Assembly (NCBI GenBank): GCA_964482235.1
Contig: CAYZWU010000007.1
Span: 3,053 to 67,052, forward strand
Source: an uncultured Phycisphaerales bacterium
GTDB taxonomy: Bacteria; Planctomycetota; B15-G4; CAYZWU01
Direction of reading: 5' to 3'
DNA length: 64,000 nt
Shown here: piece by piece, positions 428 to 63,443 of the stretch
Layout of the letters: each line of letters begins with the position of its first letter
Numbering within the stretch: the first letter of the stretch is position 1
Made by a program: the position numbers and the translations under genes
Notes under the pieces: generated by a model
The model's input: the letters and a program-made list of their open reading frames with translations, nothing else
Databases searched by the model: none
Told to the model about the DNA's origin: nothing

Positions 428-1300
428 CTACTTGGTGAAGTCCTCGATGATCTCCACGATGATGTCGCCGATGCGGAGGAGGTTCTCCTTCGTGCTGGCG
501 CCGATATGAGGCAGGGCCACCACGTTGGGCAGCCCGAGGAGAGGCGAGCTTTCCGGAGGATCGCTGTACCAGACGTCGTTGCCGTAGGCCGCGACCTTGC
601 CCGACTTGAGCGCCTCGGCCAGATCCTCCTCGTTCACGCACTTGCCGCGTCCCGTGTTCACCATGAAGACGCCGTCCTTCATCTTCGAGATCGTGTCCGC
701 ATTGATCATGCCCTTGGTCTCGTCGGTGAGGGGAAGGTGGAGCGAGATGTAGTCGGACTTGGCGAGGATCTCCTCGACCGTGTCCACGTACTCGGCCGCG
801 TCCTGGTCGGAGCGGACCACATCGTAGGCATGGACGTTCATCCCGAATGCCTTGGCCCGCTTGGCGAGCTCCAGGCCGATCCGTCCCAGGCCGATGCAGC
901 CGAGGTTCTTCTTGAAGAGCTCGGTCCGCTTGCACTCCTTCTTGAGCCACTCCCCCTTGTGCATGCTGTTGTTGCCCTTGATCACGTGGTTCGGGAGGGC
1001 GATCATCAGGGCGAAGGCCAGCTCGGCCACGGCCACGCTGGAGGCGCGGGGCGTGTTGTGCACCGTGACGCCCCTCTCCTTGGCGTACGCGAGATCGACG
1101 TTGTCGAGACCCACGCCGCCGCGGATGATCAGCTTGAGGTTCGGCGCGTTGTCGATGTACTCCCTGGTGCACTTGGTCTTGGAGCGGATCAGGACCACAT
1201 CGGCCTCGGCCACCCGGGACTTGTCGTCGAAGACCTCCCCGAACTTGGCAAGCCTGTCCGGAAGAGAAGGATCGAATGCATCTGAAACGAGGATTTTCAT
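428..1300 (-). CDS. D-isomer-specific 2-hydroxyacid dehydrogenase, short SerA-like 3-phosphoglycerate dehydrogenase without an ACT domain
   Basis: 290 aa with a GxGxxG NAD-binding motif (GLGRIGLELAKRAKAFGMNV). It sits immediately upstream of serC on the same strand. Confidence 0.75.
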   Translation of the reverse strand: MKILVSDAFDPSLPDRLAKFGEVFDDKSRVAEADVVLIRSKTKCTREYIDNAPNLKLIIRGGVGLDNVDLAYAKERGVTVHNTPRASSVAVAELAFALMIALPNHVIKGNNSMHKGEWLKKECKRTELFKKNLGCIGLGRIGLELAKRAKAFGMNVHAYDVVRSDQDAAEYVDTVEEILAKSDYISLHLPLTDETKGMINADTISKMKDGVFMVNTGRGKCVNEEDLAEALKSGKVAAYGNDVWYSDPPESSPLLGLPNVVALPHIGASTKENLLRIGDIIVEIIEDFTK

Positions 1301-1556
1301 GACCAGATCTCCCTTGATACCTGAGCCATGCCGCCGGCCCGGGCGGCAGCGCTGTTTCTTCTATTGAACTTCCATAAAAAATGACAATGTTGAACTGTGT
1401 TTTTTATCATATTCAGCAGGGAGTGTGAACAGTTGCTTTCTTTGGGGAGAGTTTTTTTTCGGCCTTCGACTCGTCTCCGTAACTGATTGTGGTATATATT
1501 ACTGTGATCGTCGAGCCGGGCCTGGCGCCTTTTTTTTTATCATTCTTGGAGAAACG

Positions 1557-1988
1557 ATGAAGATCCGTGTTTACTACGAGGATACCGACGCCGGAGGCGT
1601 GGTCTACTATGCCAATTATCTGAGGTATTTCGAGCGCGGCCGGACCGAGCTTTTTCGCGACAGGGGCATCGATCTGGCTCACTGGGAAAAAGAGGGGTAC
1701 ATTTTCACCGTGAGCAGGGTGAAGGCCGCCTACAGATATCCGGCGCGGCTGAACGACCTGCTCGACCTCGAGACGCGGCTCATCGACGTGACGCATGCGA
1801 GCCTGACCTTTTCGCATGCCACCAGGAATTCGGAGACGGGCCGGCTCCTTGTGGAGGGCGAGGTGAAGGCCGTCTGCGTCAGCAGCAGGACGTTCAAGCC
1901 CACGGGGATTCCCGGGGAGATCCGTGAGGTGGCCCTCGAGGCCATTCGAGAGGCATCGGGCGAAGAAGAGACGGCGGTCAGATCATGA
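1557..1988 (+). CDS. YbgC/4HBT-family acyl-CoA thioesterase
   Basis: MKIRVYYEDTDAGGVVYYANYLRYFERGRTE is a hot-dog thioesterase signature. GGAG lies 6 nt upstream of the ATG at 1557. The 5' extension to 1425 shown in the track is unlikely to be real. Confidence 0.8.
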   Translation: MKIRVYYEDTDAGGVVYYANYLRYFERGRTELFRDRGIDLAHWEKEGYIFTVSRVKAAYRYPARLNDLLDLETRLIDVTHASLTFSHATRNSETGRLLVEGEVKAVCVSSRTFKPTGIPGEIREVALEAIREASGEEETAVRS

Positions 1989-2488
1989 GGAGGTGTTCCA
2001 TGTGTTCGATTCGATTCCAGGCGGCCTTGATCCTGCTTGCGGCGGTCCTGGCTCTCGCGGGCTGCTCCTCGGTCTCGTTCCTTCCTCTCGAGGGGGAGGC
2101 GCCTCGCGATTCGAAACCCGACGGGTTCGCGATCCATCTGCTCGATATCAGGGACGCGCAGCAGCTGAGAATCATCGGCAAGGTCTCCTGTCAGGATTCG
2201 GCCAGGTCCTCGATATGGAACTGGTGGACCGACAGTCATGCCCTGATCGAGGAGATGAAAGCCGGCAACAGGGAGAGGCTGATCGCAAAGGTGAAGTCCG
2301 TCGGGGGTGACGCTCTCATCGACCTCAAGCACGAGATAATCACCGGCGGCGGAGGTGGCGGCGGCATCGGGATCGGCGCCGGAGTGGGGCATGGGGGAGT
2401 CGGAGTGGGAGTGGGAACCTCGATTTTCGGCTCCAATCCCAAGCTGATCGTGGTCTCGCACGGCAAGGTGGGCGTGTCAGCGGAATAG
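1985..2488 (+). CDS. lipoprotein with a Gly-rich C-terminal tail, function unknown
   Basis: Signal peptide with lipobox (LALAGCSS). The C-terminus is GGGGGGGIGIGAGVGHGGVGVGVG. The start overlaps the thioesterase stop (ATGA coupling). Confidence 0.5.
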   Translation: MRRCSMCSIRFQAALILLAAVLALAGCSSVSFLPLEGEAPRDSKPDGFAIHLLDIRDAQQLRIIGKVSCQDSARSSIWNWWTDSHALIEEMKAGNRERLIAKVKSVGGDALIDLKHEIITGGGGGGGIGIGAGVGHGGVGVGVGTSIFGSNPKLIVVSHGKVGVSAE

Positions 2489-2494
2489 GAGGCG

Positions 2495-3298
2495 ATGACG
2501 TACCGCGCATTGACCATCGCCGGCTCTGACAGCGGCGGCGGAGCGGGGATCCAGGCTGATCTCAAGACCTTCTTCGCCTTCGGCGTGCACGGCATGTCAG
2601 CCGTCACGGCCGTGACGGCGCAGAACAGCCTCGGCGTCCAGGCCGTCTCGGAGCTGCCGCTTCCGGTCATCGCCGCCCAGATCGAGAGCGTGGCCGGCGA
2701 CGTGGGTGCCGATGCAGTGAAGACGGGGATGCTCGCCGGCGCCGGCGTGGTGGAGCTGGTGGCGGAAATCGTCGAACGGCTCGATCTCGGCCCACTCGTG
2801 GTGGATCCCGTCCTGACTTCGGGCAGCGGCACCACTCTTCTCCCCGCGGAGGCGATCAGGCTGGTCAAGGAGCGGCTTCTCCCCCTGGCCGAGGTGGTCA
2901 CCCCCAACCTCGCCGAGGCCGAGGCGCTCGCGGGCAGGCCCGTGAAGACGCTCGCCGGGATGAAGGAGGCGGCAGCCGCGATCGGGGCATCGGGCTGCCG
3001 ATGGGTCGTGGTGAAGGGCGGGCACCTGGAGGCTGCCGAAGAGGCGGTCGATGTCGTCTTCGACGGGAAGAAGGTCGTCGAGCTACGCGCGCCGCTCTGC
3101 AGGATCGGAAGCCCTCACGGCACGGGGTGCACCTTCTCGGCCGCCGTTGCGGCCGGACTGGCCTCGGGCAGGGAACCTCTCCAGGCCATCAAGAAAGCGA
3201 AGGAGTTCATCACGCGGGCCATTCAGGTATCCTACCGCCCGGGGCGCGGGCAGTGGGTGACCAACCAGAACGTGGATATCTCCAGCCCCTGGAGCTGA
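2495..3298 (+). CDS. thiD: hydroxymethylpyrimidine/phosphomethylpyrimidine kinase
   Basis: Carries the IAGSDSGGGAGIQADLKT motif and has the ThiD/PdxK ribokinase-like fold. 267 aa. Confidence 0.85.
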   Translation: MTYRALTIAGSDSGGGAGIQADLKTFFAFGVHGMSAVTAVTAQNSLGVQAVSELPLPVIAAQIESVAGDVGADAVKTGMLAGAGVVELVAEIVERLDLGPLVVDPVLTSGSGTTLLPAEAIRLVKERLLPLAEVVTPNLAEAEALAGRPVKTLAGMKEAAAAIGASGCRWVVVKGGHLEAAEEAVDVVFDGKKVVELRAPLCRIGSPHGTGCTFSAAVAAGLASGREPLQAIKKAKEFITRAIQVSYRPGRGQWVTNQNVDISSPWS

Positions 3299-3329
3299 TG
3301 GGGGGCGCTGCGAGGGCGTGCCGGACGGC

Positions 3330-4178
3330 TCACGAAGCGGATTCGGCTTCCTGCCTGAGCCCGAGCTTGGCCTCGAATTCCTCCTTGTTCTTTCCCTTCA
3401 GGGAGTGCTCCTTCCCGGCCAGGAGCTTGCGGATCGCCTTCACCTCGGGCCTCGAGAGACGGATCCCCTGGGCCACGTGCTTCTCGAAGGCCTCATAGGC
3501 CAGCGGGGCCACGGCGCGGGCCATGTCGGCCATCACCTCGGCATAGCGCCGGATTTCCATCTGGGCATGGGATTCCATTCTCAGGCGAAGGAAGTGGAAG
3601 AGGTTGTTCAGGTCGATCTGCCAGTACCACTGCGTGTAGAGGCTGATGGGGAGGTTGACGCGGGCCAGCTCGCGGGCGATGTCGTCATCGAGAAGGGCCT
3701 TGTAGCTCTCGTAGGAGGCGGACTGGTCCTTCCGCAGGATGTCGAGAACGCGCTGCCTGAGCTCGGCCGGGACGTCGCGCGTGGAGCGTCCCTGCCGGTT
3801 ATCCTCGCTCTGATAGCGGATGTCCTCCTCGGCGGGGATGTAGAACTCCTCGGTCATGACGCTGTAGCGGCCCGAGATCTCGTTCAGCCGGGCCGTCCGA
3901 TGCCTCACCCACTGGCGGGCCACGAAGATCGGCATCTTGGCATGAAAGGTCAGGACCACCTGCTCGAAGGGCGACGTGTGGGCATGCTTGATCAGGTAGT
4001 TGATCAAGCCCTTGTCCTGGCGGACCGTCTTGGTTCCCTCGCCGTAGGAGACGCGCGCGGCCTGGACGATCCGGGCGTCGCCGCCCATGTAGTCGACGAG
4101 CCTCACGAATCCGCGGTCGAGGACCTTGTATTCCCTGTCGAGGATGGCTTCGGCTTCCGGGACGATCACATGTGCCAT
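3330..4178 (-). CDS. thyX: FAD-dependent thymidylate synthase ThyX
   Basis: ThyX motif RHRTARLNEISGRY (RHR...SxR). 282 aa. Confidence 0.9.
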   Translation of the reverse strand: MAHVIVPEAEAILDREYKVLDRGFVRLVDYMGGDARIVQAARVSYGEGTKTVRQDKGLINYLIKHAHTSPFEQVVLTFHAKMPIFVARQWVRHRTARLNEISGRYSVMTEEFYIPAEEDIRYQSEDNRQGRSTRDVPAELRQRVLDILRKDQSASYESYKALLDDDIARELARVNLPISLYTQWYWQIDLNNLFHFLRLRMESHAQMEIRRYAEVMADMARAVAPLAYEAFEKHVAQGIRLSRPEVKAIRKLLAGKEHSLKGKNKEEFEAKLGLRQEAESAS

Positions 4179-53507: not shown

Positions 53508-55222
53508 ATGGGAAACAACGGGAGGCTCAGTCTCAGCTGCTTCGACCTGCCGGTGCACGAGATCCGCAGGGGCTACCGGAGCGACGTCTACTTCTGGCGA
53601 TCCAAGGTGGTCCTGGAGAAGATCGGCAACAGGAGGACCGGGCTGATCCAGGTCTTCCAGAAGCGGGATGCCAGGCTCTGCGGCATCGACGAGGCCCTGG
53701 GGATCCTCCGGCTGGGGATCGGCCGCTACAGGGACCTCGATACCGCATACCGCGCTTTTGACCGGTACATCGAGCTCAAGATTGCGATGCGACGCACCTT
53801 TCTTTGCGATCCGGAGCGGCACGAGGCCCTGCGCCGGGAAAGGAGCGGCGTGCAGGAGGAACTCGACAGCCTCTGGGAGCCGCACTACGCCGACTGCCGG
53901 GTGGAGGCGCTTCATGACGGCGATCCGATAACGCCGCGCGAGACGGTCCTTCACATGGAGGGTCGGATCGCCGACTACGTCCACCTGGAGACGCTCTATC
54001 TCGGCGTTCTCGCCCGACGGACCCGGGTAGCCACCAACGTGGCCCGCATCGTGGAAGCGGCGGAAACCAAGCCGGTCCTCTACTTTCCCGCCCGGTTCGA
54101 TCACTGGGCCGTACAGGGCGGCGACGGCTACGCGGCTCGTGTCGGCGGCGCGGCCGGCGTCTCGACGGACGCACAGGCGAGCTGGTGGGGGAATCGCGGC
54201 ATGGGAACCGTTCCCCATGCCCTGATCGCCGCCTTCGAGGGCGATGCGGCACGCCGTCTCGGCAGCGATCTCTGGGGTGTTCGCCTCGACACGGCCGAGG
54301 ACATGGTTGACCTCTCCCTGCAGGAGGGCGCCGTCGATCCGGACGATGTCCGGGATCCGTCGCGGTGCGGGGTCAACGAGGCTCTTGTCCTCGAGGTGCG
54401 GGATGCCCTCGACCGCGAGGGCTTCGGCCACGTGAAGGTCGTGGTGAGCGGCGGCTTCGACGAGGAGAAGGTTCGTGACTTCGAGGAGAAGCGGGTTCCC
54501 GTCGATGCCTACGGCGTGGGCAGCTCCCTGCTCGAGGGTAACTTCAACTTCACGGCCGATGTAACGACCAGGCGGTTCGGGCGCGGCGCTACCACTGGCT
54601 CGGCGAGACGGTGGACGACTTCGTCTGCGAGCCGCACCAGGCCGTGGACAATCTCGACATCGAATCATCGGATCCGGTTCAGGGAAAACCGGATTCGGTC
54701 ACGAAGCTCAACAGGGTTGCCAGGGAAGCGGACTTCGTCCGGGCGGGATGCGCCGCTCTGGCCCGCGAGAATCCGGACCGTGTGATGGCCGAGGTCCGGA
54801 AGATCACGGAAGGCCCGACGCTCTTCGCGCCGAGCCGCCACGCCCTGCTCCCCGAGGACGTCAACCTGGCGCGGCTGCAAAAGGTGCTCGTCACGGCCCA
54901 CGAGAGGCAACCCGGCGACTTCGAGACGCTGCTCGGAACGAGCCGGATCGGTCCCGCCGCGGTGCGAAGCCTCGCACTCCTGGCCGAGATCATTCACGGC
55001 GCACCGATCTCGAGGCGCGATCCGGCCGGACCGGGCGACAGGAAGTGGGGCGACTATGCCTATGCCCACGGCGGAAAGGACGGCTTCCCTTTTCCCGTGG
55101 ACCGCAGGACCTATGACCGCAGCACCGAGGTCCTCCTCACCGCAGTGCGCCGGGCCCGAATGGGGGAGAGGGAGAGGAGCGAGGCGCTGAGGCGGCTTTC
55201 ACGCATCGCCGTGATCGATTGA
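53508..55222 (+). pseudogene. nicotinate phosphoribosyltransferase (NAPRTase)-family protein with a ~200-aa C-terminal extension; apparent frameshift near 54560-54600
   Basis: NAPRTase-like motifs are present (GTVPHALIAAF, a GTxxH phospho-His motif; VRLDTAED; YGVGSSL). The frame-0 tail after ...GNFNFTADVTTRRFG is Ser/Arg/Thr-rich junk. A protein-like sequence continues in the frame of ORF 54611..55222 (RRYHWLGETVDDFVCEPHQ...). Confidence 0.55.
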
Positions 55223-57055: not shown

Positions 57056-58837
57056 CTAGTAGGTGTAATAGGTCTCCAGGGCGATCCGATCCTGCTCGTG
57101 GCCTTTCCGGATGAGCAGGTCGTGCACCTGGCTCACCATGTGCGGATTGCCGCAGAGGAAGACGAGGGTGTTCGCGTCGATCTCGCGATCCTCCAGGTAG
57201 TCGGGGATCCTGCCGTGGAAGTCGCCGCCTTCCTCGCGGGTCACGCAGGTGGTGTAGCGCTCCCTGGAGATCTCCTCGGCCAGCACCTCGTCACCCTTGA
57301 AGCGGATCCCGTGGATCACCTGAAAGTCGATACCCGGATAGCTCCGGATGAACGACTGGAACGGCCCGACACCGATCCCCGACCCGATGAAGAGGTACTT
57401 CTGGTTGCCGTCCATGGGATCGGGGACGCAGAACTCGCCGTAGGGTCCGATCACGTTGACGCTGTCGCCGGGAAGGAGGCCGCTGAGGAAGGGGCTCATC
57501 ACGCCGCTCTTCACCTCCTTGATCAGGAACTCGAGATAGTTGTCAGCCGCGCCGGAGATCATCGTGTAATCGCGCGTCTTCTGGTACTTCAGGTGGGGGC
57601 TGAGGCTCACGTTCTGTCCCGGCGTGAACTGGAAATCGTTCCGCTCGATCCGGAGCCTGAAGACGTCGTCCAGGAGCTGCTGGTTGCTGATCACCCGCGC
57701 AGCCATCCGGCTCTCGTTGAGCTGGACCGCCTCGTCCGGCTCGCCGACCGGATTTTCCTCCGATCCCCGCAGGTCGCCCTGAAGCGGATTCTGCCCCACG
57801 TCGAACGGCTCGGACAGGCATCCCCGCTCCATCTTCTTTCCCATCAGGGCGCGGAGCTTGTTCTTCACCACCCACTTCACCGGGTGCTTGATGTACTTCT
57901 TCATCACGGGAGCCGCCGAGCCGATCATCCAGCAGTTCTTGGGGCAGGTCGACACGAGAGCCCGCACCTTCTCGGCCTGCTTGCTGTACCAGAGCTCCTC
58001 GAAGGTCTTCACCTCGCGGATGTTTCCCATCTGCTCCTTCCAGTACTTCTCCTCCAGGCCGTTGCATGGGTAGACCTCTCCGTACGGCTCGATGAAGAAG
58101 TTGGTGGTGCCCGCCTCGCAGGGCAGGAGGCGGCGGTTGCCCTCGATGTAGTTGATCAAACCCAGGTTGAAGAAGGCCCTGAACCAGCTCTTCGGGCTCT
58201 TCTCGGCGAGGAGCCGGTCGCAGAGCTCGTAGAAGTTATCGGTCACCTCGTCCTCGTTCACGATCCTGTTGTTGTCCTTGTGGAAGTAGTAGGAGTTGTG
58301 GTAGGTGGCCGTGGCGAACTCCATCTTCAGGTTCTTGGACAGCTCGTAGAGCTCGAGCATGTCGGACGAGTTGTTGTTGGAAACCGTGATGCCGAAGCCG
58401 ATGTCCTTCACACCCATCCGCCTGAGACCAAGCAGCGTGCGCAGTCCGCGGTCGAAGCCGCTGTCGCGCCCTCTGAGATGATCGTTGATCGTGGAGAGCC
58501 CCTCGATGCTGATCCGGATGCCGATCTTCGGGAACCGCTCGGCCAGGGCGAGGATCTCGTCCACGTGATACCCGGCCGTGGAGATCACCACGCGCGGCGC
58601 CTTGGTGAAGCAGACCTCCACGATGTCGCCCAGGTCCCTGCGGACAAGGGGCTCGCCGCCGGTCACGTTGATCGAATTGAGCTGGGGAAGGATCTCCAGT
58701 TCCTTGGGCTTGATCTCGTCGGCGATACGGGTCGGGAACTTCCAGATGTTGCACATCTTGCACTTCATGCAGCATCTGTACGTGGTGATGATCGAGGCTT
58801 CCACCGGCATGGGCGCTTTTGATTGTTTGTTGCTCAT
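57056..58837 (-). CDS. radical SAM / SPASM-twitch domain enzyme fused to a C-terminal FNR-type FAD/NAD(P)-binding reductase domain
   Basis: CxxxCxxC motif at RCCMKCKMC. Auxiliary-cluster Cys motifs C-x17-C (with G-x4-C) and CPKNC. The C-terminal ~230 aa carry an RxYS FAD motif (TRDYTMIS), GPYGEF, GSGIGVGPF and CGNPHM. Confidence 0.7.
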   Translation of the reverse strand: MSNKQSKAPMPVEASIITTYRCCMKCKMCNIWKFPTRIADEIKPKELEILPQLNSINVTGGEPLVRRDLGDIVEVCFTKAPRVVISTAGYHVDEILALAERFPKIGIRISIEGLSTINDHLRGRDSGFDRGLRTLLGLRRMGVKDIGFGITVSNNNSSDMLELYELSKNLKMEFATATYHNSYYFHKDNNRIVNEDEVTDNFYELCDRLLAEKSPKSWFRAFFNLGLINYIEGNRRLLPCEAGTTNFFIEPYGEVYPCNGLEEKYWKEQMGNIREVKTFEELWYSKQAEKVRALVSTCPKNCWMIGSAAPVMKKYIKHPVKWVVKNKLRALMGKKMERGCLSEPFDVGQNPLQGDLRGSEENPVGEPDEAVQLNESRMAARVISNQQLLDDVFRLRIERNDFQFTPGQNVSLSPHLKYQKTRDYTMISGAADNYLEFLIKEVKSGVMSPFLSGLLPGDSVNVIGPYGEFCVPDPMDGNQKYLFIGSGIGVGPFQSFIRSYPGIDFQVIHGIRFKGDEVLAEEISRERYTTCVTREEGGDFHGRIPDYLEDREIDANTLVFLCGNPHMVSQVHDLLIRKGHEQDRIALETYYTY

Positions 58838-59126
58838 GGCTCTATCTCTCTCGGAATTAAAATCCGTTCAATATCTATTACTGAATATCGGGCTGTGGAG
58901 GCAGGGATAGCCCATCCTTCACTGCATGTCAATCATCAACGGGCGAGACGTGGCGGCGCGGCAGGCGTGGAGCTTTTCCCGTCCAACGAAAGGGAATAAA
59001 AGAGGATTGGCCAGGTCATTTTCTTCCTGATACCATGCTTCCCTAGGCGACTCATCCTGGCGGAAATCACCATGAGGAAGGAATACGGATAGACACGCTC
59101 TCGCTCCCGAAACGAAGGAGACTGAA

Positions 59127-59555
59127 ATGGTTCAACGCCTTTTACTCACTGCCGCCTCTGTCGGTGTTGCGCTTGTTCTGCTCATGGTCGGATCGTCCTG
59201 CGACTGCTCCGATCCGACGGATTCCGGCAGCTCCGGCTCGACGGAGTCGGAAAGTACATCAAGCCCCGAGATCAAGGAACAGGTTCAGCTCTCCATCGAG
59301 GGAATGACCTGAGGCCACTGCAACGCCGTAGTTACGGCGGCGCTGAAAAAATGTCCCGGCGTGGCTCAGGTGACCGTTGACCTGAACGCCGGCACGGTTC
59401 TGGTGAAGGGCGACGAGCTCGACAGCGCGGCACTCAAGGCAGCGGTGGATAACACGGACTACGAAGTCCTCGAAGTAACGGGACCGGACCCGATCAGCAC
59501 GGAACAGGCCCCGGCCGACGAGGTGGAGAAGGATGGCGAAGGCGCCGGATCATGA
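59127..59555 (+). CDS. MerP/CopZ-like heavy-metal-associated (HMA) lipoprotein with in-frame TGA at the first Cys of the MxCxxC motif; candidate selenoprotein
   Basis: AAGGAG lies 8 nt upstream of the ATG. Signal peptide/lipobox present (LLMVGSSCDC). The sequence around the TGA reads ...LSIEGMT-TGA-GHCNAVVTAALKKCPGVAQVTVDLNAGTVLVKGDELDSAALKAAVDNTDYEV, which is the HMA fold. ORFs 59127..59312 and 59361..59555 are in the same frame. Confidence 0.55.
59324..59339 (+). promoter_or_regulatory. candidate bacterial SECIS hairpin, 11 nt downstream of the in-frame UGA
   Basis: 6-bp stem CGCCGU/ACGGCG with an AGUU apical loop containing G-U. The spacing from the UGA is within the range reported for bacterial SECIS elements. 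Confidence 0.4.
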
Positions 59556-59599
59556 AGGCGGCATGACCGTTCCCTTGCCTGCTCTTTTTTGTTCGGCAT

Positions 59600-59620
59600 T
59601 GCCGGATTTCCGGCCTTTTT
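59600..59620 (+). terminator. rho-independent terminator after the HMA gene
   Basis: GCCGGA-TT-TCCGGC hairpin followed by CTTTTTC. There is also a T-run at 59583-59590. Confidence 0.6.
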
Positions 59621-59778
59621 CATTGCACGGTCGATCTGCGGGACTATTAATTTCAGAGTCGGTTTTCCCACTAGATCGATGTGAAAACAGTTCTTTTGTC
59701 TCATCGTTCGAATCTTCACCTGCATGCAACAAGTTGGTGATTTTTCCCAGGTGTCTGTAGGGATACCCTGGAGCTCGT

Positions 59779-60366
59779 ATGTTTACGAAGAAGTTTGAGC
59801 GTCGCATCCACATTGCCGCCGGCGTCGTACTCTTCTCTCTCGTGCTGGGTTTCGCTTTCGGCGCCTACGCGCTCTGGCCGGCCAACCTGGAAGAGGGCTA
59901 TCAGCCCGAGCAGCCGATCGAGTTCTCCCACGCCACCATGGCCGGGAAGCACCAAGTCGACTGTCTCTACTGCCACTCTTGCGCCGAGAAGGGCCGGTTC
60001 GCCACGATTCCCCCGACCTCCACCTGCATGAAGTGCCACAAGGAGATCAAGCCGAAGAACTCCAAGGGAGAGCTCCTGCCCGACATGGTCAAGCTCTACC
60101 GGTACCACGAGAGCGGCGAGCCGATCCTGTGGGAGAAGGTCTACGATCTTGCCGATTTCGTCTACTTCGATCACAGCCGCCACGTGAACGAGGGGGTCGA
60201 GTGCATGGAGTGCCACGGCGACGTGGAAAAGATGGACCGCGTGCAGCGCGTCCACTCGCTCAAGATGGGGTGGTGCCTCGAGTGCCACAAGGAACCGCCG
60301 CCCGAGGGAAGCCCGCCGTGGCAGAAGACGCGGGCTCCCATTTACTGCTCGACATGCCATCGGTAA
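59779..60366 (+). CDS. actA: alternative complex III pentaheme cytochrome c subunit ActA
   Basis: Five CxxCH motifs (CLYCH, CMKCH, CMECH, CLECH, CSTCH) and an N-terminal TM anchor. It is followed by actB and actC. Confidence 0.85.
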   Translation: MFTKKFERRIHIAAGVVLFSLVLGFAFGAYALWPANLEEGYQPEQPIEFSHATMAGKHQVDCLYCHSCAEKGRFATIPPTSTCMKCHKEIKPKNSKGELLPDMVKLYRYHESGEPILWEKVYDLADFVYFDHSRHVNEGVECMECHGDVEKMDRVQRVHSLKMGWCLECHKEPPPEGSPPWQKTRAPIYCSTCHR

Positions 60367-60386
60367 GCCCCGAACGGAGCATCCTG

Positions 60387-63300
60387 ATGAAAGCGGATGA
60401 AAAAAACTCCGGCCGAATCCATCCTTCCGCCCTGCGGGGCCGCGGCCTTCCCTCGAGGGAGGACTCGGCCGGCGTCGGGCTGTCCGGGCCGGACCGGGAA
60501 GAATCCTCGGCCATGAGCCGCCGCTCGGTTCTCAAGTTCATGGCCGCCTCGGCCGTCCTCTCCACCGGATTCCTGGGCTGCACGCGCAAGCCTCCGCGCA
60601 AGATCGTGAGCATGGCCGACCAGCCGGAGTACAGCCGTCCCGGAATCCCCCTCTACTACGCCTCCACATGGACCGAGGGATCCGTTCCCTACGGGATCAT
60701 GGTGAAAACCCTGGACGGCCGTCCCGTCAAGGTGGAAGGCCTGCCCGGCTTTCCCCTGAACCGGGGAGCCACGAATGCGGCCATGCAGGCGTCGCTGCTC
60801 GGGCTCTACGATCCGACCAGGCTCAAGGGGCCGAAGAAGGGCAAGGCGTCGATCTCCTGGGAGAAGGCCGATGCCGCCCTGGTCGAGGCGATCCGGAACG
60901 CCCGGTCCACCGTCCTGATCACACGGTCGAACCTGGGACCGTCGGAGCGGGCGATGGTCGAGCGGTTCTGCCGCGCTGCCGGCAATGCCCGCCACTTCGT
61001 TCACGAGACCGTTCACGACGGGCCGCGCCGCTCGGCGTGGAAGAAGATCTACGGCCCGGCGTCCGGGAAGGGCGAGGGAGGCGAGCTCACCCCCGACCTC
61101 TCGAAGGCCCGGGTTGTCGTGAGCCTCGACGCCGACTTCCTCGGCACCGACGGCCCGTTTCTCGAGGCGATCCGCCATTTCGCCACGACGCGCCGTCCCG
61201 ATCCGAAGAACCCCGACGCGGCGCCCCTGTCGCGCCTCTACGCGGCCGAGTCCGACATGACGGTCACCGGGTCCAATGCGGACCACAGGATCCCCCTGCG
61301 GCCTTCCCTGATCCTCCCGCTCGTCCAGGCGATCCGTGCCGCCCTGGAAGGACGAAAAGGCGAACTCGAAGCCCTGGCGAAGAAGGAGGATTACGACATC
61401 GAGGTGCTTCAGGCGCTGGTGAAGGATCTCGACTCCCATCGCGGCGCCTCGGTTGTGCTCGCCGGACCTCACCTTCCCGAATCGGTCCATGCCGCGGTCT
61501 GTCTTCTGAATCATGCGATCAAGGCGCCCGGCGCGACCCTGCGCTGGAACCCGGCGCCCCCCGCGCTCGAGGTGACCGATCCCTCGGAGATCGCCGCGGC
61601 CCTGAACGCCGGTGTGGACAACCTCATCCTCCTGGGAGTCAATCCGGTCCATGACTGGCCCGGCGGCGGCTTCGAGAAGCTGCTGGCCCGCTCGCCCTTC
61701 AGCGTGGGGCACGGGCTTCTTGCCGACGAGACCGTTTCGACCTGCACGATCTCCCTGCCGAGCAGCCACAACCTGGAATCGTGGAACGACGCGGCGCCCT
61801 GGTCCGCGTTCCGGTCCCTCTGCCAGCCCGTGATCGCGCCCCTGCACGACACGCGGCAGGAGGCCGAGTCGCTTCTACGATGGACCAGGCTCCTCGAGCC
61901 GGAAGACGGCAGCTTGAAGGAGTGCCGCGACTGGCACGATTTCCTGCGCAGCGAGTGGAAGGGAATCCTCGCGAACGAGGGGGATGATTTCATCCGGGCC
62001 TGGGAGGCGAACCTGCGGCACGGCTTCGCCGGCGCCTTCTACACCTATCCCTTTCCCGAGCCGAACCGCGAGAGGGCCGAAGCCCTGGCAGGCGCAAGCT
62101 CCGCTCGGCCGGGCGGCCTAGAGGCGGTGATCAAGCCGCACCACGCCCTGCACGACGGCCGGTTTGCGAGCAACGGCTGGCTTCATGAGCTTCCCGATCC
62201 GGTGAGCCGCCTCGTCTGGGACAACGCGGCCGCCGTCGGTCCGGCCACGGCCCGCGAGCTCGGTGTCGAGGAGGGCGATCTGGTGACCCTCTCCTCCGGC
62301 AAGAGGAAGATCATGATCCCGGTCCTGGTCCAGCCCGGCGTGGCCCCCCGCACGGTGGTCGTCACCCTCGGGCACGGGCGGACCCGCGCCGGCCGGCTCG
62401 GCAGCAAGGTCGGTGTCAACACCGCGGCTCTTCTCGGCGACGGGGGAGCGGGCGGCACGGCCTGGCTTCTTCCCGACGTAAAGATCGCGCGCACGGGAAG
62501 GACGCATCGCCTGGTGCGAACGCAGACGGCCTTCTCGATGGATGACCGGCCGATCGTTCTTCACGGCACGACGCAGGAGTTCGCCGGGAACCGGGACTTC
62601 GTCAAGGATCGCCGGCACGTGCCCGAGAAGATCCAGCTTCACGACGAGTTCGACTACTCCGAGGGCCGCAAGTGGGCCATGGCGATCGATCTCGGCGCCT
62701 GCGTGGGCTGCGGCGCCTGCATAACCGCCTGCCAGGCCGAGAACAACATCCCCATCGTGGGGAAGGACGAGTGCGGCCTCGGCCGCGAGATGCACTGGAT
62801 GCGGATCGACCGCTACCACGAGGGCGACGAGGAGAACCCGGAAGTCCTTCAGCAGCCCATGCTCTGCCAGCACTGCGACAACGCGCCCTGCGAGAACGTC
62901 TGCCCCGTCAACGCCACCGCGCACAGCGACGACGGGCTCAACGACCAGATCTACAACCGCTGCGTGGGGACGCGGTACTGCGCCAACAACTGCCCCTACA
63001 AGGTGAGGCGCTTCAACTTCTACAACTACAGGAAAGAGGAGGAGGGATCGCCGACCCTCGAGCTGGCCCACAACCCGCAGGTCACGGTCCGCATGCGCGG
63101 CGTGATGGAGAAGTGCTCCTTCTGCGTTCAGCGGATCAACGAGGCGGACTTCCGGACGAAGAGGCCGGGCCGCCACATCCCCGACGGCACGGTCCGCCCG
63201 GCCTGCCAGCAGGCCTGCCCGGCCGGAGCGATCGTGTTCGGCGACGTGAACGATCCCAAAAGCCGCGTGGCGAAGCTCGAGAAGTCGCCCCTGGCCTACC

Positions 63301-63443
63301 TGGTCCTCGATGAGCTCAACGTGAAGCCGAACGTCCGCTACCTGGCGCGCCTTCGCAATCCCCACCCCGACCTGGAGCACCGCTTCCGGAAGAAGACCGG
63401 CCACGAGGATCATGACGGCCGCGGAGAAGGGGGGCATCGATGA
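60387..63443 (+). CDS. actB: alternative complex III ActB (fused molybdopterin-oxidoreductase-like and 4Fe-4S ferredoxin domains) with Tat signal
   Basis: Tat motif [21 protein letters not shown]. An MopB-like domain without a Mo-bis-PGD Cys ligand is followed by an FeS domain with several Cys clusters ([33 protein letters not shown]). The start is either the ATG at 60387 or the ATG at 60514. Confidence 0.85.

Follow-up and report, generated by a model that had tools for sequence, protein, structure and literature searches.

A predicted selenocysteine at the first metal-ligand position of an exported heavy-metal-associated lipoprotein from an uncultured Phycisphaerales bacterium

The bacterial selenocysteine (Sec) pathway is well established and, to our knowledge, redox catalysis is the role of Sec in nearly every bacterial selenoprotein characterised. 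The use of Sec as a metallochaperone ligand has so far been a matter of computational prediction only (P-type ATPases, UxxU proteins, MerT fusions). Sec-containing proteins of the heavy-metal-associated (HMA) type have been catalogued in silico in four kinds: a P-type ATPase with a UxxC motif, the families NF041115 and NF045683, and a 'Mercuric transport protein MerP' predicted from marine metagenomes in the Global Ocean Sampling (GOS) survey, whose entry gives no comparable motif or sequence (PMC2398784). Stand-alone U-x-x-C HMA proteins do not appear as a listed family in the 2022 and 2026 prokaryotic selenoprotein catalogues, as far as these were searched. Here we describe a gene of this kind on a 64,000-nucleotide (nt) stretch of DNA from an uncultured Phycisphaerales bacterium (contig CAYZWU010000007.1, positions 3,053 to 67,052; hereafter the window, whose own numbering is used throughout). 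The gene very probably makes a functional HMA lipoprotein in which an in-frame TGA stands for Sec. A sequence-based note on this DNA (the original prediction) had held Sec-containing HMA or MerP-type proteins to be at most rarely described; with four kinds already catalogued the protein is less novel than that, and it is the exported, lipid-anchored form that is new. Replacement of a ligand Cys by Sec in an HMA-type domain had been predicted computationally before, so no new category is added.

The reading frame extends from ATG 59127 to a TGA stop at 59553-59555, a length of 142 codons, and its sole in-frame interruption is the TGA at 59310-59312. Translation gives MVQRLLLTAASVGVALVLLMVGSSCDCSDPTDSGSSGSTESESTSSPEIKEQVQLSIEGMT up to this codon and GHCNAVVTAALKKCPGVAQVTVDLNAGTVLVKGDELDSAALKAAVDNTDYEVLEVTGPDPISTEQAPADEVEKDGEGAGS after it; the peptide around it reads ...SIEGMT, the TGA, then GHCNAVVTAALKK.... 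The binding loop is therefore G-M-T-[TGA]-G-H-C, with Cys65 (TGC, 59319-59321) as the second ligand. With the TGA read as Cys, the Pfam HMA profile PF00403 was matched from position 2 to 62 of 62 (E = 5e-17, 62.4 bits against a cut-off of 24.8), which indicates a complete HMA domain with the TGA inside it. From this full-length match, the protein would be expected to adopt the beta-alpha-beta-beta-alpha-beta fold. Eighty genome loci with G-M-[TS]-C-x-x-C aligned to the TGA were collected at 38-53% identity, and the TGA column was Cys in all 76-80 Cys-type homologues. The window domain scored 82 bits against a hidden Markov model (HMM) built from 76 of the Cys-forms. Direct reading of the sequence, the homologue alignment and the profile match thus bear out three claims of the original prediction: a single frame with one interruption, a TGA at the first Cys of the metal-binding loop, and a complete HMA domain beyond it. 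TGA is an ordinary stop in 27 of the 44 window genes, where it is the commonest stop, and the genetic code is therefore standard rather than reassigned.

The same locus was recovered, by exact look-up of the downstream gene, from at least six independent metagenome assemblies of JGI and ENA, and its longest contigs in public databases measure 116-166 kb. These six assemblies were 99.8-100% identical over 5-14 kb, and base-identical to the window over 59000-59700 save for one substitution at 59004 in one of them (L005). They represent one clonal population, which excludes random error and is uninformative on constraint. A syntenic relative from a different species, L155, was found on a 24-kb Logan contig through its radical-SAM neighbour gene (88-89% identical). 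It shares ~79% nucleotide identity with the window over 8.5 kb, with amino acid identities of 92% for ActA of Alternative Complex III (ACIII), 88% for the radical-SAM protein, 76% for ActB and 70% for a GDSL-like protein. Between its radical-SAM gene and ActA are two small open reading frames (ORFs) which, read as one frame, give MNPGLSRSAVVFCFAALLLFSLSCGDSPAPADSPGTNEGGGAKEIREQVFLTIEGMT, the TGA, then GHCVAAVTKVLQRCPGVAEVTIDLNKGTAVVKGAGLDSAALTAAVDAADYKIVEATDPEPINPEPETEGAGEPDE. This TGA occupies the same alignment column as that of the window, and the lipobox is retained. Identity between the two HMA proteins is 48% over their whole length and rises to 64% in the 55 codons past the TGA; all indels between them are multiples of three, and the frame is open on both sides of the TGA despite 52% amino acid divergence. 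The search proposed with the original prediction, for homologues with either Cys or TGA at the aligned position, accordingly returned both, the TGA in L155. A scan of the genome collection with the protein yielded only Cys-form HMA domains of at most 53% identity, none of them syntenic, the species or genus being unrepresented or missed. A word-indexed search of a 5.8-billion-sequence database with the full protein, U replaced by C, gave no match at E <= 1e-3, the domain being short and generic, and the annotated fragment ORFs were not among its results either.

Codons after the TGA were compared between the window and L155 by the Nei-Gojobori method, with a Fisher test of synonymous against non-synonymous changes. 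Over all 75 downstream codons, dS was 0.82 and dN 0.31 (omega = 0.38, p = 0.0008). Over the 55 HMA-domain codons past the TGA, dS was 0.69 and dN 0.25 (omega = 0.36, p = 0.0025). The post-TGA codons are under purifying selection. From the TGA to the first possible internal start, 10 of 16 residues are identical between the two species, H-C and C-P-G among them. A third cysteine, Cys78 (59358-59360), lies 13 residues past the second ligand Cys in the sequence L-x-x-C-P-G-V and is kept in both orthologues. A Cys at this position is lacking in most HMA proteins and in the metagenomic Sec-forms described below.

Metagenomes were scanned with a DNA pattern, GGNATGACNTGAGGNCAYTGY, encoding G-M-T-TGA-G-H-C, and matches were read through the TGA and scored with the HMM of 76 Cys-forms. 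Of 62 sites, 22 proved to be genuine HMA domains scoring 34-86 bits, in which the frame stays open for another 53-58 codons before a regular stop; the other pattern sites scored at most 24 bits, a level explained by the imposed motif alone. The 22 genes encode CopZ-like proteins of ~70 amino acids (aa) and come from many environments. On six contigs (L093, L103, L117, L128, L150 and L151) the U-HMA gene lies between genes for a CsoR/RicR-like repressor and TrxB, followed by SelA. The SelA assignment was verified in L128 (TIGR00474, 564 bits), and a tRNA-Sec gene lies within ~4.5 kb of the U-HMA gene in L103 (7777-7872), L117 (4712-4808) and L128 (9123-9219). On a further contig, L118, the U-HMA gene (3394-3613) directly follows that of a CopA-type P-type ATPase (872-3379). 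Because 22 true HMA domains read through the TGA, some of them beside selA or tRNA-Sec, U-x-x-C HMA proteins are, as judged from these genes, real and present in demonstrably Sec-decoding genomes. Together with the L155 TGA and the purifying selection, the 22 genes support the central proposal of the original prediction, that Sec replaces the first loop Cys in an exported lipoprotein.

Two further observations were made on these contigs. The conserved cluster (L128 3809-7185, and likewise L103, L117, L150, L151 and L093) comprises a Fur-like regulator, the CsoR/RicR-like repressor, the CopZ-like selenoprotein, thioredoxin reductase and SelA. The L118 ATPase has its own N-terminal HMA domain, in which the loop carries ordinary Cys (G-M-S-C-S-A-C).

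In the minimal E. coli fdhF element, the selenocysteine insertion sequence (SECIS) starts 11 nt past the UGA and has G-U in its loop. The window hairpin has a core 6-bp stem starting exactly 11 nt past the UGA and a 4-nt loop, AGUU, with G at position 2, so that the hairpin described in the original prediction is present as stated. Its likening to a SECIS held in part: position and loop fit, but the structure is unexceptional by shuffle tests. When hairpins were sought at this restricted position, one of 80 Cys-form controls was as stable as the window hairpin and 79 were weaker. In the same search the Sec-forms exceeded the Cys-form controls (n = 80, Mann-Whitney p = 0.0016), although the metagenomic Sec-forms fall in few related groups and the comparison is not one of independent observations. 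Whole-segment minimum free energies of Sec-forms and Cys-forms differed with p = 0.07. Five metagenomic Sec-forms carry CGCGAG-CGUGA-CUCGCG, or near variants, at the identical offset, and a 66-nt window segment folds better than its shuffles (z = -2.8). The hairpins of L155 are weaker, either GUCGC-AGCC-GUGAC (-4.4 kcal/mol) or GCAGC-[12 nt]-GCUGC (-5.1 kcal/mol), with an apical loop AGCC or CGUGA.... The hairpin evidence is compatible with a SECIS and falls short of proof.

The usual in silico signs of a bacterial selenoprotein gene are a TGA conserved in at least two sequences, homologues with Cys, conserved coding sequence downstream, a SECIS-like stem-loop close behind the TGA whose small apical loop contains G, and selA, selB, selC and selD in the genome (PMC1088965). 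At this locus the TGA occurs in two sequences, homologues align with Cys, and the coding sequence past the TGA is conserved. By these standards the gene is a predicted selenoprotein gene, and we infer that the organism decodes Sec.

Several results weigh against this interpretation. None of selA, selB, selD or tRNA-Sec was found in the window, L001, L155 or L157, which amount to ~80 kb of a several-Mb genome. Window ORFs of the size of SelD, SelA and SelB encode TsaD, a GFO/IDH/MocA oxidoreductase and an M23 peptidase/HEAT protein; the Rfam search of the window gave only a tRNA-Leu, and the 10 kb to its left yielded no sel genes. The window and L001 yielded no second gene broken by a TGA; the one candidate, at 54665-55069, was an artefact of an antisense shadow. 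Among Planctomycetes the Sec trait is patchily distributed, with some genera (Gemmata, Isosphaera) having it and others not (PMC4807772); the patchiness counts against Sec decoding here, whereas its presence in some genera counts for it. As for the hairpin, the 36-nt window segment gave a shuffle z of only -0.7, and dinucleotide shuffles of 36-nt segments gave unremarkable values of -0.2 to -0.7. The window and L155 hairpins are in different register, so covariation is absent, and RNAalifold returned no consensus structure from 22 Sec-forms. Searched exhaustively with HMMER, the part after the TGA retrieved the protein's own 64-aa fragment (P0244) and otherwise only generic HMA domains. A cluster look-up for variants did not yield a third orthologue, so that the number stands at two. 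At six ACIII loci with 65-74% ActA identity, the HMA gene is absent upstream, whether called or uncalled.

These points bear in part on two competing accounts of the TGA. If the UGA were read through without Sec, by a near-cognate Trp or Cys tRNA or by leaky termination, residue 62 would be an ordinary amino acid. Selection supports translation past the UGA whichever residue is inserted; the Sec machinery is presumed in this organism, and the hairpin is not compelling by shuffles. We nevertheless regard this as improbable. A conserved UGA at a metal-ligand Cys with a hairpin 11 nt on is the standard bacterial Sec signature, identical G-M-T-UGA-G-H-C genes adjoin selA and tRNA-Sec in other organisms, and under selection a plain TGC would be expected if Cys were intended. 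The original prediction had also raised a nonsense pseudogene, in which a change from TGC or TGT to TGA would have killed a Cys-type HMA lipoprotein gene whose downstream part had not yet decayed. Either Cys codon is one transversion from TGA, the ~80 kb surveyed hold no visible Sec machinery, the six clonal assemblies say nothing on constraint, and the gene is absent from the ACIII loci of distant relatives, hence dispensable in the wider group. However, the TGA is common to an orthologue at dS ~0.7-0.8, so the mutation would need to be ancestral. An ancestral nonsense mutation would leave neutral evolution behind it, whereas omega past the TGA is ~0.36-0.38 (p = 0.0008), stops and frameshifts are lacking, and H-C, C-P-G-V and the beta-strand residues are kept. 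Loss of the gene by nonsense mutation is strongly disfavoured on these grounds and appears quite improbable.

The remaining accounts concern how the locus is annotated and assembled. Automatic calls divide the gene into products of 61 aa and 64 aa in all six assemblies, and of 57 aa and 69 aa in L155, and the 64-aa fragment is an entry in a protein library (P0244). The locus might then make two products, a 61-residue lipopeptide ending in G-M-T and a 64-residue fragment from GTG 59361. This is very unlikely. The internal GTG, where the gene callers start, has no Shine-Dalgarno sequence, and neither piece has the complete HMA fold or metal site. The internal starts chosen by the callers do not correspond between the two species, while the residues from the TGA to the start are conserved (10/16), both of which argue against two separate products. 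For an error of sequencing or assembly at 59310-59312, the other alternative named in the original prediction, there is only the general possibility of a single-base fault. It is exceedingly unlikely, since six assemblies (JGI, ENA) from different samples agree on the base and the Logan assembly of another species has the identical codon, so that seven independent assemblies from two species share the TGA.

Sec insertion at this TGA would place the residue in an exported protein. Bacterial lipoprotein signals have an early basic residue, a hydrophobic core and the lipobox [LIVMFWSTAG]2-[LIVMFYSTAGCQ]-[AGS]-C within the first ~35 residues. Applied by eye, this pattern fits the window protein (R4, a hydrophobic stretch at residues 5-22, then V-G-S-S-C25) and its L155 orthologue (R7, then ...LLLFSLS followed by Cys24), in agreement with the lipoprotein assignment of the original prediction. 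The linker that follows diverges fast, with a 4-codon indel relative to L155. The acidic tail has a comparable counterpart in L155, where it is terminated by TAG.

A mechanism can be proposed from these features. On reaching the UGA, the ribosome would meet the stem-loop 11 nt on, which would recruit SelB.GTP.Sec-tRNA(Sec), so that Sec would be inserted and termination avoided. The precursor would be exported, then lipidated and cleaved at Cys25, as its sequence pattern suggests, and the flexible acidic linker would tether the domain on the periplasmic face of a membrane. There the Sec62/Cys65 pair would bind a soft metal in the two-coordinate HMA manner. A selenolate would have a lower pKa and faster ligand exchange, and would resist irreversible oxidation in the oxidising periplasm. 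The metal is probably Cu(I), the likeliest candidate given that CopZ profiles match best, that the loop is of the C-G-H-C type, and that the nearest Cys-forms occur in Cu/Zn permeases, P-type ATPases and CopZ; C-G-H-C is a typical copper-chaperone loop. Hg(II) or another soft metal may be the ligand instead. Adjacency, in two species only, to the ACIII/SCO1/oxidase cluster and to a haem-synthase-like radical-SAM gene makes copper supply or buffering for the oxidase plausible. This is the weakest step, and a dedicated link to the oxidase is doubtful. Only tentatively, then, can the protein be pictured as a membrane-tethered periplasmic Sec-Cys metallochaperone that would deliver or buffer Cu(I) for ACIII and cytochrome c oxidase in marine Planctomycetota.

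Features of the locus are collected in Table 1.

Table 1. Predicted features of the HMA gene and adjoining genes, in window coordinates
Feature	Position	Strand	Basis and remarks
Radical-SAM / SPASM / FAD_binding_6 fusion, divergent neighbour	57056-58837	-	Pfam families; syntenic in L155
Shine-Dalgarno AAGGAG	59115-59120	+	6 nt 5' of ATG 59127; read directly from sequence
Lipoprotein signal peptide (MVQRLLLTAASVGVALVLLMVGSS followed by C)	59127-59201	+	Translation fits lipobox; Cys25 codon 59199-59201
Flexible linker, Ser/Thr/Asp/Glu-rich, lipid anchor to domain	59202-59288	+	Translation
HMA domain, residues 55-113	59289-59465	+	Pfam PF00403
In-frame TGA, predicted Sec codon, residue 62	59310-59312	+	Replaces first Cys of G-M-T-C-x-x-C
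SECIS-like stem-loop	59320-59343	+	Core CGCCGU-AGUU-ACGGCG 59324-59339, extended by GC/GC pairs
Acidic low-complexity C-terminal tail and true stop TGA 59553-59555	59466-59555	+	Translation
Terminator-like hairpin GCCGGATTTCCGGC then CTTTTTCATT	59601-59624	+	Terminator scan; hairpin 59601-59614 then CTTTTTC
ActA	59779-60366	+	Gene calls and Pfam (L001); ACIII
ActB	60354-63443	+	Gene calls and Pfam (L001); ACIII

Downstream of the stop, the original prediction had placed a clean intrinsic terminator at 59600-59620. A hairpin and T-run are present there, but the terminator scan found 1 site against 1.4 in shuffles, which is not significant by itself. In L155 no terminator was called at the equivalent place, yet a short hairpin and T-run are visible.

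In both species the HMA gene lies between the radical-SAM gene and the ACIII/SCO1/COX1/COX3 cluster. Beyond the window end, ActB is followed by ActC, ActD, a cytochrome c, an unassigned 406-aa protein, SCO1/SenC, COX1 and COX3, in the same order in L155. A relative identified through its radical-SAM protein (L156, 70% identical) has no HMA gene. The link of the HMA gene to the respiratory cluster is lineage-specific, and weak, in view of its absence from the ACIII loci of relatives; the gene is not a conserved component of ACIII. The region 5' of the ACIII operon is itself highly variable among related Planctomycetota (L087-L092), with genes for a metallophosphatase, an Rrf2/CBS regulator, LTD-domain proteins or sigma-54 activators in one relative or another. 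Compared with these loci, an HMA selenoprotein gene upstream of ACIII occurs only in the window lineage and its closest relative.

The divergent radical-SAM/SPASM/ferredoxin-reductase-type FAD fusion is a widespread protein of 593 aa; its homologues number over 5,000 (E <= 1e-30), some of which JGI names 'Fe-coproporphyrin III synthase'. The mechanically derived ActB ORF (TTG 59979, 1154 aa, 59979-63443) is over-extended into ActA; the public call starts at 60354 and gives 1029 aa. Elsewhere, the window has genes for sulfatase, GH127, peptidases and type II secretion. The names carried by homologues of the neighbouring genes point to Planctomycetota, near Phycisphaerae. Some 4-10 kb past its left end (L157, 14199-20873) lie a transposase fragment and a restriction-endonuclease-like gene, then PLD-domain, MZB (DUF1998) and helicase genes, a trio resembling a DISARM-type defence module.

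Annotation pipelines split this gene into two meaningless ORFs of about 60 aa, and do the same to its orthologue and the 22 metagenomic relatives; re-annotation recovers a real family. The finding extends a known pattern and does not overturn current understanding. If the tentative picture of a periplasmic Cu(I) metallochaperone is true, selenium would serve metal trafficking outside the cytoplasm rather than redox catalysis. Together with the 22 cytoplasmic CopZ-like genes, some of them in sel clusters with a CsoR-type repressor, it would point to an experimentally unstudied link between selenium and copper. The association of a CsoR/RicR-like repressor, a U-CopZ-like gene, trxB, selA and tRNA-Sec hints at a coupling of copper stress to selenium use. 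The protein described here has a small soluble domain and a natural comparison set of Cys-forms, and would lend itself to measuring how a selenolate alters the affinity for Cu(I) or Hg(II), the rate of exchange and the resistance to oxidation, above all in an oxidising periplasm.

The window protein scored below the cut-offs of all tested NCBIfam and TIGRFAM models (NF041115, NF045683, CopZ and MerP), the best matches being to CopZ. It resembles the P-type ATPase UxxC selenoprotein, also described in silico only, in the predicted replacement of the first Cys by Sec and in presumed soft-metal binding. We take the UxxC motif of that protein to sit in an N-terminal HMA-type metal-binding domain. 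There the motif belongs to a large membrane pump and lies on its cytoplasmic side, whereas the window protein is a stand-alone protein of 142 aa with a signal peptide and would act on the other side of the membrane. NF041115, the 'UxxU metal-binding (seleno)protein' that appears in reviews as 'putative mercuric reductase', is likewise a small selenoprotein of the HMA-like, stand-alone type. Both of its ligand positions are Sec (UxxU), where the window protein has Cys at the second, and its 74-position model leaves no room for a signal peptide or linker; the window protein scored 38.2 bits against a cut-off of 95. NF045683, the 'MerT/CopZ fusion-like heavy metal transport selenoprotein', shares the HMA/CopZ-type module and metal handling at the membrane, but is fused to a MerT-like transporter of which the window protein has no part (36 bits against a cut-off of 375).

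MerP (TIGR02052) is comparable in being a stand-alone periplasmic HMA protein, and its loop, G-M-T-C-x-x-C, is that of the window protein apart from the predicted Sec codon. It has a cleaved signal peptide and occurs in mer operons, whereas the window protein would be lipid-anchored and scored 34.3 bits against a cut-off of 92.55; merT, merA and merR were not found in the neighbourhood of its gene. A functional analogy can be drawn with Sco1/SenC and PCuAC, which are membrane-tethered, periplasmic and copper-binding, with genes beside those of the oxidase. Their folds are thioredoxin-like and cupredoxin-like, respectively, their motifs are unrelated to that of the window protein, and no homology is claimed.

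The nearest Cys-form domains, at ~46-54% identity, are the C-terminal domains of SO_0444-like permeases with P-L-C-S-C-G from Phycisphaerae (L009) and Marinimicrobia (L012), the C-terminal domain of a P-type ATPase (L016), and a CopZ encoded beside CopA (L008). The two permease fusions (L009 8906-10243, L012 8987-10249) resemble the SO_0444 Cu/Zn efflux family, for which occasional U-S-C selenoprotein variants have been reported (bioRxiv 10.1101/2022.07.06.499078). Against the CopZ models NF033795, NF033794 and NF047957 the window protein scored 53.5, 45.2 and 67.8 bits (cut-offs 91, 95 and 85). With CopZ and the 22 metagenomic forms it shares both the predicted fold and the loop G-M-T-[C/U]-G-H-C, and in the metagenomic Sec-forms (e.g. 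L112, L128, L147 and L118) the position of the TGA and the hairpin zone are as in the window. CopZ is a cytoplasmic protein of ~70 aa with no signal peptide, usually encoded beside copA or csoR, whereas the window protein is predicted to be exported and lipid-anchored, and is encoded beside respiratory genes.

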